Translations under genes and position numbers: made by a program
NCBI GenBank assembly: GCA_964016885.1
Contig: OZ024763.1
Coordinates: 1,860,001 to 1,924,000 of the forward strand
Source of the DNA: Eledone cirrhosa
Taxonomy: Eukaryota
Length of the DNA: 64,000 bases
Reading direction: 5' to 3'
Shown here: piece after piece, positions 12,546-49,640 of the stretch
Position numbering within the stretch: the first letter of the stretch is position 1
Layout of the letters: every line of letters begins with the position of its first letter
The notes under the pieces: generated by a model
Told to the model about the DNA's origin: nothing
The model's database searches: none
Seen by the model: only the letters and a program-made list of their open reading frames with translations

Positions 12546-12684
12546 ATAATTACATAAACAACACAATATAAATATTTGGTAATGAAATATTTATATTGTG
12601 TTGTTTATTATGTAATTAAATAGCTCTGTACTATATATATAGAGCACTCTTCTTTCCTTTACCTTTTCTATAGAAATACATAAC
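12546..12684 (+). mobile_element. Fold-back insert in (TA)n with 3' tail (family J, putative Penelope-like remnant)
   Basis: Inverted repeat ataaacaacacaatataaatattt / aaatatttatattgtgttgtttat, followed by a gctc...gagc hairpin tail. Confidence 0.5.
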
Positions 12685-12704
12685 ACACACACACATATAT
12701 ATAT

Positions 12705-12921
12705 GTCAACATGAATGGACCTGTTATTTTTATCTAAAGACATTTTTTCCAATTCCAACCCGCCCGTCCCTTCAATCTATCTTATTTCTCATTCTTTCTT
12801 CTGATGAAGGACTAGTTTCTGAAACATTAACACCCTCTTCCTGCTATATCAAGTGTTAACCTAATATATACCTTCCATATACTGTACCGATTGTGTTGTT
12901 ATTTCTGTTTACCATTTACAT
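12705..12921 (+). mobile_element. Putative Penelope-like 3' UTR remnant with degenerate hammerhead
   Basis: CTGATGA agga-ctagt-ttct GAAA cat taa at 12801-12830; stems I and III are poor; flanked by (TA)n. Confidence 0.35.
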
Positions 12922-12930
12922 ATATATATA

Positions 12931-13104
12931 CGTTATTCCGGGTTGAATCGGAGGTAACAACAGTAAGTAAGGTACTCAATACATTGCAGAGTATAAAAGT
13001 TTTAATATAGATGAGATTCTACAGGACTAGAACTGTTTCATTCTTTAGAAATCATAAAGAATGAAACAGTTCTAGTCCTGTAGAATCTCATCTATATTAA
13101 AACT
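12931..13104 (-). mobile_element. Family A fold-back element (hammerhead truncated within CUGAUGA)
   Basis: Same tail and arms as 38961-39151; palindrome ~12998-13104 with apex at ~13047-13055. Confidence 0.85.
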
Positions 13105-13116
13105 ATATATATATAG

Positions 13117-13182
13117 TCAAGGGCGGTGCCCCAGCATGGCCTCAGCCGGATGGCTGAAACAGGTAAAAGAGTAAAAGAGTAA
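13117..13182 (+). mobile_element. Unclassified SINE 3' end with short (TAAAAGAG)n tail
   Basis: gggcggtgccccagcatggcc...ggctgaaacaggtaaaagagtaaaagagta. Confidence 0.5.
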
Positions 13183-13248
13183 TATATAATAATAATAAGG
13201 GTTGACGGACCCAGCATATTTATCAATGCCATTATTTAACTTATATAT

Positions 13249-13433
13249 GGGCGGTGGATTGGCAGTATCGGTAGAGGGTCGGACGCCATGCTTTCCAGCA
13301 TAGTTACATCCCTTTACGATCTGAGTTCAAATCCCGCCGAGGTTGACTTTGCCTTTCATCCTTACGGGGTCGATAAAATAAAGTACCAGTAATGCACTGG
13401 GTAATTGCTGGCCTTGTGCCTAAAGTAGAAACA
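13249..13433 (+). mobile_element. Full-length Meta-like SINE with 18-bp TSD
   Basis: A box tggcagtatcgg, B box gagttcaaatcc; TSD attatttaacttatatat at 13231-13248 and 13434-13451. Confidence 0.9.
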
Positions 13434-14324
13434 ATTATTTAACTTATATATATATACAATATATATATAAGTTAAATAATGTTTTAACTTATATCATGCC
13501 CCCCTTCTTTCTTTCCAATCTGTGTTATCTGTGTCTTATTTGTTTACACAAGAAATATAAATATTTCATAATACAATTATAATATAATATAATGTATATA
13601 ATATAATATATATAATATAATACAATTATAATATAATGTATATAATATAATATAATATAATATATATATTATATAATATAATATAATATATATATTATTC
13701 CTTGTTTATATTGGCAATACGGAAAGAACAAAAGACTGGAACAGACTTCTATCACAACAACAACAATTATTTGAGATAATAGTTTTAATTAAAAGTAATC
13801 AGAAAAAGATTAGCTGATAATAATAATAATAATAATAATAATATAATAATAATAATGATCCTATCTTAGTCTCAGAACTTCTAGTTAATAATTGGTGTTA
13901 TTAGCTATAATAAATATTTGTAGAGTCTCATTAGTTTATCTTAATGCCATATTATGTAATCTATTTCTCTTTTGTAATTGGTTTAATTAAAATATATAAG
14001 ATATATTTTAATTAAAACTAATTAGGCACCAACATGGCTGAGTGGTTAGGAATTTTGATTTGTAATCGTGAGGTTCCGGGGAAGTGATTTTGTTTGAATC
14101 TTATCTTGCAGTCTTAAAACAGGATTCTAGGGCACACAAACATGCATGGTCCCGTAACTTGTGGTGGAATCGTAGAGGCACCTTATTGACATAAGGGTGT
14201 TTCTAGGGCATTTTAAAACTTGGCAGAGCCCATCTCCTTTCCAGGTCTGAATACAGCAGATTTTTTTCAATGACGGATAGAGAGAGTGAAAGAATGGAAG
14301 TGAGGAAGAGATATAGAGGAAGAA

Positions 14325-14455
14325 TGGTGAAGAGCATTGGGCTTGCAATCAAAAGGTTGTGAGTTCAATTCTCAGACCGGGTGATGTGTTGTTTCCTTGA
14401 GCAAGACACTTTATTTCACATTGCTCCAGTTTACTCAGCTGTAGCAATGAGATGA
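14325..14455 (+). mobile_element. CORE-like tRNA-derived SINE fragment
   Basis: agagcattgggcttgcaatcaaaaggttgtgagttcaattctc...ttgagcaagacactttatttcacattgctccag, as at 25648. Confidence 0.8.
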
Positions 14456-14769
14456 TAGTCTATTCCTCTGTTGTAATTAGTTTAATTAAAATATATAAGA
14501 TATATTTTAATTAAAACTAATTAGGCACCAGCATGGCTGAGTGGTTAGGAATTTTGATTTGCAATTATTTTCTTTGAATCTTATCTTGTCCTCTCCTTCT
14601 TTTTCTTCTTTGCCTCCTCCTCCTTCTTCTTTGCCTCCTCCTCCTCCTTCTTCTTCTTCTTCTTTGCCTCCTCCTCCTCCTCCTTCTTCTTCTTCTTCTT
14701 CTTCTTTTTTTCTTTTTCTTCTTCTTTTTCTTCTTTTTCTTCTTCTTCTTCTTTGCCTTCTTCTTCTGT

Positions 14770-47181: not shown

Positions 47182-47432
47182 TACGATATTAAACAAATGG
47201 AAACTATATTTATAAAACCATATTTATTTCATTATACATATTTCAGGGATACCATATTAAAAATATGGCATGCCTTCCTCAGATAAAATACAATATATAA
47301 GCAGTTTTATAAATAAATTTGACGTACCATAAATATTGATCAACTTCCATTTGAGAAGTTGTTGAGTGCTTTATATCAGTTATAAAATATTTACTCGTTG
47401 TAACCCAACAATTTTAAATAAAACTTTTGCAT
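47182..47432 (+). mobile_element. Family D element: long inverted arm joined directly to the tail
   Basis: Homolog of the left arm and tail of 34679-35180. Confidence 0.8.
47225..47290 (-). ncRNA. Type I hammerhead ribozyme (family D, CUGAGGA core)
   Basis: tattttat CTGAGGA agg-c-atgccatatt-ttt-aatatggtat-c-cct GAAA t-atgt-a TA atgaaata. Confidence 0.78.
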
Positions 47433-47797
47433 ATATATATATATATATATATATATATATATATATATATATATATATACATCCAGGGAGTGTAACGCGG
47501 AGTTACTGAAGGTTCACCCGGGTGAGCACTCGAGGTTTAGGTCCCCTTCTGGCCGGTTTTGGCCAGTTTTGGCCGGTTTGAACACTAAAGGGTTAAACAA
47601 TATATGCATAGTGCGGCAGAAACTCGAGTTCGGGTACCACTATAGGTACCCGTTTACGTGTGTTGTATTGAAGCGAATAACTATGTGTCTACTCTGGAGG
47701 TGTATATAACAGTACCTATTGAGTACGCTGAGATGTCACCGGTCCTGGCGAGGATACCCATGCTGTGTCTGTCAACTTATTATTATATATAATTATT

Positions 47798-48565
47798 TAC
47801 GGTCTGAGTTCAAATCCCGCCGAGGTTGACTTTGCCTTTCATCCTTACGGGGTCGATAAAATAAAGTACCAGTAATGCACTGGGTAATTGTTGGCCTTGT
47901 GCCTAAAGTAGAAACAATTATATATATATATATATATATATATAAAGCGGTGGATTGGCAGTATCGGTAGAGGGTCGGACGCCATGCTTTGACGCATAGA
48001 GTTACGGCCCTTGCCATTCTGAGTTCAAATCCTGCCGAGGTTAACTTTGCCTTTCATCCTTACGGAGTCGATAAAATAAAGTACCAGTAATGTACTGGGT
48101 AATTGCTGGCCTTGTGCCTAATGTAGAAACAATTATATATAATTATATATATATATAAAAGCGGTGGATTGGTAGTATCGGTAGAGGGTCGGACGCCATA
48201 CTTTCCAGCATAGAGTTACGGCCCTTGCCATTCTGAGTTCAAATCCCACCGAGGTTAACTTTGCCTTTCATCCTTACGGGGTCGATAAAATAAAGTACCA
48301 GTAATGCACTGGGGTTATTGCTGGCCTTGTGCCTAATGTAGAAACAATTATATATAATTATATATATATATAAAGCGGTGGATTGGCAGTATCAGTAGAG
48401 GGTCGGACGCCATACTTTGACGCATAGAGTTACGGCCCTTGCCATTCTGAGTTCAAATTCCGCCGAGGTTAAATTTGCCTTTCATCTTTACAGGGTTGAT
48501 AAAATAAAGTACCAGTAATACACTGGGGGTAATTGCTGGCCTTGTGCCAATAGTAGAAACAATTA
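47798..48565 (+). mobile_element. Head-to-tail cluster of four Meta-like SINEs separated by short (TA)n
   Basis: Copies at ~47798-47919 (truncated), 47947-48134, 48161-48349 and 48374-48564. Confidence 0.9.
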
Positions 48566-48569
48566 TATA

Positions 48570-48885
48570 TTTCATTTCATTTCATTTCATTTCATTTCAT
48601 TTCATTTGAGTTTGAGTCCATGCTCAGGCCAAGTCGAAGACTCCACCCTCAGAGTCTGGTGTGGTTGCCAGGTTGGATTCTCTGTTTAATTTTGACATGT
48701 GTAGGAGCGAGTTTGAGTCAGTTTGTGCTCGTTGTGTATATCCTGGGAGATGGGGTTCATCTCTAATGGTGCTTAAGTATCTATCCAGCTGCAATTTGAA
48801 TGATTCCACACTGCATCCTGATAGATTTCTGACATGTACCGGAATGGAGTTGAATAGTTGTGCCCCTCGAACCAACAGACTTGAC
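48570..48885 (-). mobile_element. CR1-group LINE 3' fragment with (ATGAA)n tail
   Basis: RGAQLFNSIP..VRNL....VESFKLQLDRYL....DEP..PGY C-terminal motif. Confidence 0.75.
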
Positions 48886-48932
48886 TATATATATATAATA
48901 TGTATATATATATATATATATACATATTATAT

Positions 48933-49074
48933 CAGCTCAAAAGTGACACAGAGGAGACTGAGGTTGGCTGGACATGCTCACCGACATCCAGAGTTGACAT
49001 TGCACTCAGTGCTCCTTTGGAAGCCCCTACATGGACACACTAGAAGAGGAAGACCAAGGTTAACATATGTTGAT
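48933..49074 (+). mobile_element. RTE-type LINE 3' fragment, part 1
   Basis: SSKVTQRRLRLAGHAHRHPE...LLWKPLHGHTRRGRPRLTYVD. Confidence 0.8.
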
Positions 49075-49120
49075 TCCTGATGATTTCTAAAGAATGAAAC
49101 AGTTCTAGTCCTGTAGAATC
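49072..49120 (+). ncRNA. Type I hammerhead ribozyme (family A arm displaced by an inversion)
   Basis: gattc CTGATGA tttctaaagaat GAAA cag-ttctagtc-ctg TA gaatc. Confidence 0.78.
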
Positions 49121-49439
49121 TCATCTATCTATATATATATATATATATATATATATATATATATATATATATATATATATATATATTGAGCTGTCAAGTA
49201 TGAAATTTGTAGTGAGGCATATGGTCATATGTTTTTTTTTCTACAAATTTCATACTTGACTACCCAATATATATGTGTGTATATATATATATGTGTGTAT
49301 ATGAAATACATAGCAAAATGGTATATATAATATAGTATATACACCGCTATGATTACATATTGAGGGTTCCTCCTTTCGTGATTATAATCAAGCATTCAGA
49401 CAACTATACACATATATATATATATATATATATATATAT

Positions 49440-49568
49440 CTCTCTAAGGCGGGTAAAATTCCCAAGATCCATGGACGAGTTCTCTCCAGCAGTCTCTGTC
49501 CCTCATTATCGCTGCCATGTCCTGCATCTCCAACAGACCAGTGTCTGTCCTTAGGGCATCAACATATG
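49440..49568 (-). mobile_element. RTE-type LINE 3' fragment, part 2 (inverted continuation)
   Basis: Minus strand encodes YVDALRTDTGLLEMQDMAAIMRDRDCWRELVHGSWEFYPP*, continuing ...RLTYVD. Confidence 0.75.
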
Positions 49569-49569
49569 C

Positions 49570-49640
49570 CTTTTATACTCTGCTATGTATTGAGTACCTT
49601 ACTTACTGTGGTTACCTCCGATTCAACCCGGAATAACGTA
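49570..49640 (+). mobile_element. Family A 3' tail
   Basis: ttttatactctgctatgtattgagtaccttacttactgtggttacctccgattcaacccggaataacg. Confidence 0.85.

Follow-up and report, generated by a model that had tools for sequence, protein, structure and literature searches.

We analysed a 64,000-nt window of the Eledone cirrhosa genome (assembly GCA_964016885.1, contig OZ024763.1, positions 1,860,001 to 1,924,000; coordinates below are those of the window), an AT-rich, eukaryotic-looking stretch dense in simple repeats, in which short inserts of several families share a small hairpin near their 3' ends and are compared here with the ends of Penelope-like elements (PLEs). Fourteen inserts, in families A, B, C, D, G and J, are built head to head, with a tail on the arm of one side only (Table 1). 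The two long open reading frames (ORFs) of the window, at 29970-33086 and 50237-52309 on the minus strand, encode RTE-like long interspersed nuclear element (LINE) proteins and are unrelated to the hairpin inserts. A previous sequence-only reading had noted a common stem in otherwise unlike tails; all seven strings that it quoted were located, at the hairpin positions given in Table 1, and an eighth family, N, carries a full motif beyond its list.

The motif proved narrower than that stem and can be written as RCTC, then an inner stem that varies, T(T/C/A) as a 2-nt bulge, and lastly GAGYRC. Its loose form, RCTC..GAGYRC, occurs at 18 sites of the window, compared with 4.0 ± 2.0 (maximum 10) in 200 dinucleotide shuffles made in 1-kb blocks. 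The full form, with the 2-nt bulge on the 3' side and an inner stem of at least 3 pairs, is found at 16 of these 18 sites against 0.05 ± 0.26 (maximum 2) after shuffling, a figure that is optimistic because the descriptor was built from the very sites counted. The 16 full motifs span eight families (five in A, three in B, two each in C and D, and one each in G, I, J and N). The inner stem, 3-6 pairs long, differs in sequence by family and retains its pairing, and six families have A-T as their first outer pair, with G-C in its place in G and J; the remaining three outer pairs are invariant and thus carry no information on structure. G-T pairs in the inner stems of A, J and N are possible in the sense strand only, the sole feature leaning towards sense RNA. 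Among the variants listed from reads of family A, the outer stem shows C39091T alone, by which a G-U pair is kept, and the inner part shows five. The two loose sites that fail the full form are a family D copy at 45960 with a shortened inner stem and ACTC..GAGTAC at 36485-36506, which lies in a copy of an abundant repeat resembling short interspersed nuclear elements (SINEs), has neither bulge nor inner stem and was set aside as a look-alike. Partial or decayed forms stand at 33713, 36685, 41793, 45960, 47362 and 47526.

Both ends of the inserts keep fixed distances from the hairpin. Fifteen of the 16 tail-less arm ends, which were judged by eye and with the offset borrowed from a family mate in three, fall 2-14 nt before the R of RCTC, and the remaining one (family C, 29304) lies 7 nt inside the hairpin. 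The arms range from ~26 to 193 nt, and therefore the common end point is not due to length. Tail ends lie 40-62 nt past the hairpin, with the short-tailed C1 (16 nt) as exception. (TA)3 is present 35-65 nt downstream of 13 of the 16 sites against a baseline of 11.8%, the range having been set after inspection; the three sites outside it are C1 (16 nt), B3 (174 nt) and I (internal run at 10 nt, junction at 57 nt). A (TA)n junction lies at most 65 nt from 15 of the 16 motif sites.

Read mapping covered four of 24 sequencing runs (X22, X1, X16 and X5), with 39019-39152 as the family A reference. X22, a run of restriction-site-associated DNA (RAD) and hence a reduced genome sample with possible duplicates, gave 6849 reads; among the loose ends listed (15 of 230), those behind 39084 (417 reads) and those behind 39149 (473 reads) are (AT)n. 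Contigs of X1 also show the tail end, X5 gave two contigs and X16 gave no reads. The arm-end-to-hairpin distance, measured in the window and in these reads, indicates that the ends track the hairpin, and the earlier observation that in most copies the inverted arm stops a few bases upstream of the stem is borne out, with the family A reads agreeing at 39084. The interpretation offered with it is sustained in part, and the proposal that TA microhomology sets the site has weak support. Arm ends show 1-7 nt of TA overlap, on average 3.2 nt compared with 1.7 nt at positions drawn at random along the arms (P = 0.004 for 12 arms, whose copies are not independent), which is a modest enrichment; however, the overlap is just 1 nt in three of the 12 arms and at 39084, the strongest read junction listed, and PAc, a PLE of the Poseidon clade from Anolis, is described as initiating without target homology (PMC11167929).

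Table 1. Hairpin inserts, further families and associated features of the window (tail ends as distance past the hairpin).
Feature	Positions	Strand	Hairpin	Remarks
Family J insert	12548..12694	+	12623-12647	tail-less inverted arm 12548-12577; hairpin in tail arm; in (TA)n
Family A copy A1	12931..13104	-	12972-12992	tail arm 12931-13054(-)
A1 tail-less arm	13055-13104			stops 5 nt short of hairpin position
Family C copy C1	20256..20485	+	20443-20469	short tail, 16 nt
C1 tail-less arm	left side			stops 3 nt short of hairpin position
Family D copy D1	25532..25623	+	25540-25561	tail
Family B copy B1	27786..27976	+	27905-27930	arms 53 nt, identical; tail end +46 nt
Family C copy C2	28982..29304	-	29028-29054	hairpin in tail arm (-)
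C2 plus-strand arm		+		hammerhead-type fold, core 29152; stops inside hairpin at (CT)n run
Further family P	33640..34070	-		weak hammerhead fold, core 33894
P decayed hairpin			33713-33720 (3' half)	(TA)n 70 nt beyond
Family B copy B2	34441..34640	-	34486-34511	tail-less arm ~25 nt further 5' than tail arm
Family D copy D2	34681..35178	+	35097-35118	identical 193-nt arms; tail end +60 nt
D2 hammerhead-type fold				core 34990; cut predicted to follow 35039
Family A copy A2	38960..39151	+	39090-39110	tail end ~39151; served as reference in read mapping
A2 hammerhead-type fold	39019-39067			cut predicted to follow 39062
Family A fragment A7	40190..40216	+		tail-less; stops in (TA)n 12 nt before hairpin position
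Family G insert	40286..40441	+	40366-40392	GCTC/GAGC hairpin; perfect 35-nt arms; tail end +49 nt
Family A copy A3	40461..40628	+	40568-40588	central short fold-back filler; tail-less arm extends further 5'
Further family O	41715..41830	-	41793-41808	outer stem and bulge, no inner stem; (TA)n 77 nt beyond
Family I insert	44325..44581	+	44498-44524	no inverted arm; tail end +57 nt
I hammerhead-type fold				core 44392; cut predicted to follow 44445
Family B copy B3	44611..44790	+	44720-44745	arms 40/43 identical
Family D copy D3	45926..46041	+	45960-45980 (imperfect)	26-nt tail-less arm, minimal overlap with tail arm
Family A copy A4	46056..46265	+	46202-46222	arms of two subfamilies, each with own matching hammerhead stem I
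Family D copy D4	47184..47430	+		tail-less arm ~165 nt, hammerhead-type fold (core 47282, -)
D4 tail arm			47362-47369 (3' half)	abuts tail-less arm without overlap; starts inside hairpin
Family N	47482..47783	+	47691-47726 (full)	tail end ~57 nt later
N second tail		opposite	47526-47533(-) (3' half motif)	
Family A arm A5	49072..49128	+		tail-less; hammerhead-type fold, core 49077
Family A piece A6	49571..49641	+	49577-49597	tail only, from arm-end site

The anatomy of these inserts is that published for PLEs, namely head-to-head arms, a one-sided tail, a hammerhead and (TA)n targets (PMC8557442, PMC3846280, PMC4209133). Endonuclease-containing (EN+) PLEs are described as having an ORF that joins a telomerase-related reverse transcriptase (RT) to a GIY-YIG endonuclease, with an inverted 5'-truncated copy adjoining the 5' end, and those of the Hydra clade as combining (TA)n targets and canonical hammerheads with the RWK, DKT and CxCX5C motifs, no CCHH and a single ORF of <3 kb (PMC8557442). 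In the window, inverted 5'-truncated neighbour copies are found in the 14 head-to-head inserts, in line with opposite-strand joints in the reads, and tails are confined to one end. Minimal hammerhead-type folds predicted with a descriptor precede the hairpin on its own strand, as in a pseudo long terminal repeat (pseudo-LTR), in families A, C, D and I, and weakly in P; both sides of stem I in family A change together between subfamilies, and the hairpin follows the predicted cut by 30-60 nt. Insertion into (TA)n, seen for 15 of 16 motif sites, is common to the Naiad clade too and is therefore not diagnostic of Hydra. Naiad itself was not matched, as its elements are described as lacking a canonical hammerhead (PMC8557442), whereas hammerhead-type folds occur here in four of eight families.

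We then compared the motif with six published Hydra-clade consensus sequences (supplement of PMC8557442). The exact motif is present in three of the six, from a coral and a sea cucumber, which by a criterion of our own is a Hydra-like layout of the 3' end, and near-variants are present in two more. It lies just 3' of the hammerhead in the coral element Hydra-2_Amil and the sea-cucumber element Hydra-2_Ajap, and in Hydra-1_Ajap it occurs twice in tandem at the 5' start, upstream of the ORF, with differing inner stems; these two motifs, with the end of the consensus in an AT patch, would be the same arm end in tandem view. Nine 8-letter forms of the 3' half of the motif gave 31 matches in the supplement, where line breaks may hide others, of which Hydra accounts for four and Naiad together with Chlamys for 27. 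By eye, none of these 27 is an exact motif, and one, in Naiad_Mmer, is a wobble form ~400 nt from the end. The comparison of clades covered Hydra, Naiad and Chlamys. A metagenome scan with an A/B pattern gave five matches, all without (TA)n or element context, and two viral scans with hammerhead and hairpin patterns gave eight, none with the inner stem or (TA)n; both sets were judged to be chance.

On this basis, we put at roughly 0.6 the probability that the inserts are 5'-truncated 3' ends of PLEs, probably of the Hydra clade, and that the hairpin would be an RNA signal that binds the RT and sets two internal starts; it probably behaves like a stringent RT-recognition hairpin of a PLE, with Hydra as the probable clade. 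The ends have to carry this assignment, because no PLE protein was found among the window frames scanned. The proposal of the sequence-only reading that the hairpin is a recognition signal for the RT or the endonuclease stands as the best explanation of the fixed end distances and the recurrence in Hydra, with either domain as the possible reader and either RNA or DNA as the form read.

A number of observations weigh against this view. None of 76 window frames (of 262 listed) contained a PLE domain in Pfam, and a scan of the window for motifs of the PLE clades found none. The hammerhead folds were recognised by descriptor in only four of the eight families; Rfam gave no match for three of these regions and, among the matches listed for the whole window (150 of 426), just sub-threshold microRNA-like ones. 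The tails measure 67-87 nt compared with the published 30-40 bp. Predicted folding of the hairpin in its context is weak, mixed and strand-neutral, with outer-stem probabilities of 0.03-1.00. Hydra-1_Amil and Hydra-1_Crog have near-variants only, and Hydra-1_Obim, from an octopus, has no motif, its consensus ending ~30 nt past its hammerhead, the core of which differs from every core in the window. The arms are identical or nearly so in seven of 12 pairs, which fold-back of a single cDNA would explain equally. The read evidence comes from a single RAD run with part of the rows listed, possible duplicates and no support from X16. Finally, the starts of PAc lie inside its stem loop, not beside it, as described in PMC11167929.

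Among the alternatives, the least unlikely is that the hairpin is read as DNA, either in the cDNA or in an extruded duplex, by the GIY-YIG endonuclease, which would cut just 5' of it so that the arm end is a cut site. Indeed, Craig et al. propose that the tail arises from endonuclease-mediated resolution (PMC8557442), and earlier work cited in PMC11167929 is said to require the tail for DNA recognition by the Drosophila endonuclease. The predicted stem, with a stability as RNA of 0 to -9 kcal/mol, forms with similar ease as DNA of either strand. However, the inner G-T pairs of A, J and N work on the sense strand alone, the arm ends vary within 2-14 nt and are biased towards TA overlaps, and the tail ends of PAc are described as coinciding with measured RT starts (PMC11167929).

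Slightly less likely is a single cDNA begun at the tail that folds back, copies itself, stalls at the hairpin and joins a TA, a scheme near the self-priming model with which Arkhipova et al. interpreted such palindromes (PMC3846280). The near-perfect palindromic centres (loop of 0 in G and of 2 in A2) and the identical arms of A1, A3, B1, D2 and G accord with it, although identical arms are expected alike from one shared RNA, from fold-back and from later conversion. The geometry of the arms is harder to reconcile with it. In five inserts (A3, A4, B2, D3 and D4), the tail-less arm extends past the tail arm in the 5' direction, without any overlap in D4; the arm with the tail is the longer one in A1, B1, B3 and probably D2, symmetric arms are seen in A2 and G, and the longer arm is ambiguous in J and in both C copies, the latter being left out of the count because their centre junctions are ambiguous. 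The arms of A4 differ in 6 of 64 columns and in the covarying hammerhead stem I; these variants are common in the reads, and the arms therefore look like two subfamilies, a mix that later recombination or misassembly may have produced. Barring later rearrangement, tail-first fold-back is unable to give the five longer-5' tail-less arms, the D4 non-overlap or the two subfamilies of A4, and a hairpin of such stability is weak as a block. The five inserts and the two-subfamily arms thus favour separate priming of both target strands over fold-back. At the centres of A3 and A4, a 7-nt sense filler pairs back onto the tail-less arm, and an overlap of 4 nt with the tail arm comes next. In six of the nine opposite-strand read joints listed, the tail arm begins at 39085-39106, joints upstream of the reference being invisible.

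A third possibility, which we regard as doubtful, is that the hairpin is kept for another job, such as hammerhead folding, translation start or RNA stability, and that the ends lie near it merely since it abuts the pseudo-LTR border. Its spacing from the predicted hammerhead cut and its position upstream of the ORF in Hydra-1_Ajap would suit such a role, as would tandem hammerhead units in the family A reads that stop just before the hairpin. Joints of 39087 to 39019 (9-nt linker, 81 reads, 16 starts) and of 39081 to 39019 occur in reads and contigs, while the window has no partial tandem of the kind that makes up direct pseudo-LTRs in PLEs, and the former point to ~78-nt hammerhead units elsewhere in the genome that resemble non-LTR retrozymes, end just short of the hairpin and exclude it. 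The window inserts themselves were not matched to non-LTR retrozymes, no hammerhead-monomer array being found among them. Fixed spacing on both sides is left unexplained by another job, because the pseudo-LTR border is itself set by the copying start. Helitron-type or MITE-type ends (MITE, miniature inverted-repeat transposable element) or chance stems in AT-rich DNA are highly improbable: Helitrons do have a 3' hairpin, 10-20 nt before a CTRR end, no RT gene is attached here and one SINE look-alike fits the loose pattern, but the shuffle counts, a hairpin 40-62 nt from variable ends that lack CTRR, internal head-to-head arms of variable length, upstream hammerhead-type folds and the exact motif in PLE consensus sequences all speak against them.

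If the hairpin is an RT-binding RNA signal, the inserts could arise as follows. The endonuclease would nick both strands of (TA)n; from one nicked 3' end, copying would be primed at the far site and run across the tail and the hairpin, and from the other it would be primed just 5' of the hairpin, giving the tail-less arm. The two short antisense cDNAs, made from one RNA or at times from two, would then be joined head to head via fold-back and microhomology of a few bases. The general handle would consist of the constant outer stem, the bulge and the RC, with the inner stem and loop as the family-specific part. In L1 twin priming, the second target strand likewise primes internally and an inverted 5' part results; the second site is variable in L1, whereas here it is fixed beside the hairpin and the arms often overlap.

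The closest experimental parallel is PAc, the only full-length PLE protein active in vitro so far, for which a dimer is predicted; both strands are nicked and extended at an AT-rich target, and two internal starts bracket the tail (PMC11167929). Its starts fall in a stem loop that is AC-rich and inside the ORF and no cross-family motif is reported in the accessible text, whereas here the hairpin stands between the two ends of the 67-87-nt tail region. The Hydra-clade PLEs (PMC8557442) share with our inserts the (TA)n targets, the hammerhead near the 3' end and, in three of six consensus sequences, the same bulged hairpin, but no ORF accompanies our inserts. Rotifer Penelope elements with inverted pseudo-LTRs are alike in head-to-head arms, central palindromes and one-sided tail and were interpreted as self-priming on an antisense template (PMC3846280), which in its tail-first form the five inserts above do not fit. 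It is known in principle that a LINE protein may read a constant stem together with a variable loop (PMC4176376, PMC1636434); in the stringent LINE ZfL2, the conserved stem is read generally and the loop specifically by its own protein (Hayashi et al. 2014, PMC4176376), although this RT is of another class, with a single start at the RNA 3' end and neither inverted arm nor hammerhead. PLE tails, inverted arms, hammerheads and two start sites near a stem loop are thus already known. The words "hairpin" and "stem-loop" do not occur in the text and supplement of PMC8557442, and "hairpin" and "stem" are absent from the accessible text of a retrozyme preprint (10.64898/2026.07.22.740005). In the literature outside subscription papers, Repbase notes, figures and preprint supplements, we found no description of the motif, of its sharing across families or phyla, or of dual priming of PLE inverted arms.

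Other repeats of the window were recorded alongside. Three further head-to-head inserts in (TA)n with one-sided tails (35197-35620, 43391-43750 and 49161-49410) have no motif, with a near-miss at 43696-43718 in the second; these are possibly ends of PLEs from other clades and show that not every such insert carries the motif. Hammerhead cores at 12293 and 12801 have no downstream hairpin, the latter reaching (TA)n ~120 nt later. Both RTE-like LINE ORFs have a PHD finger 3' of the RT domain, and 29970-33086 is an open 1038-aa frame including the endonuclease. Inverted 3' fragments of RTE-like LINEs lie at 35670-36320 and 43783-44312. At 48930-49641, such a fragment is apparently split into two opposed pieces with 11 nt in common, the first followed by arm A5 and the second by tail A6, a layout that looks like a later inversion (or misassembly) through a single non-overlapping family A insert. 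Short TA-flanked elements with terminal inverted repeats (21160-21240, 22000-22080, 39258-39340, 39470-39520 and 47060-47100) resemble MITEs of the Tc1/mariner type. Minisatellite arrays occupy 6580-8700, with a SINE-like unit of ~108 nt, 15470-16480, 22900-24250, 26810-27440, 55890-57070 and 60070-64000.

Junction anatomy of the kind described here bears on the origin of the head-to-head arms and one-sided tail of PLEs and separates dual priming from antisense self-priming. The motif, with its compensatory changes, provides exact targets for mutation and a marker for ORF-less ends of the group, and may offer a handle by which an RT with insertion at (TA)n could be programmed. Since the RTs of PLEs form the sister group to those of telomerase, a conserved RNA handle also bears on the origin of template positioning. 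It is conceivable, though we think it unlikely, that the hairpin is an RNA element of ancient origin that anchors the RT of a telomerase-related enzyme, retained from coral to sea cucumber to the present inserts, at which a dimeric RT would prime both strands at measured distances on one or two RNAs, and that the adjacent UA patch would be recopied in the fashion of telomerase, building (TA)n. If such recopying takes place, the element would help to build its own (TA)n surroundings.

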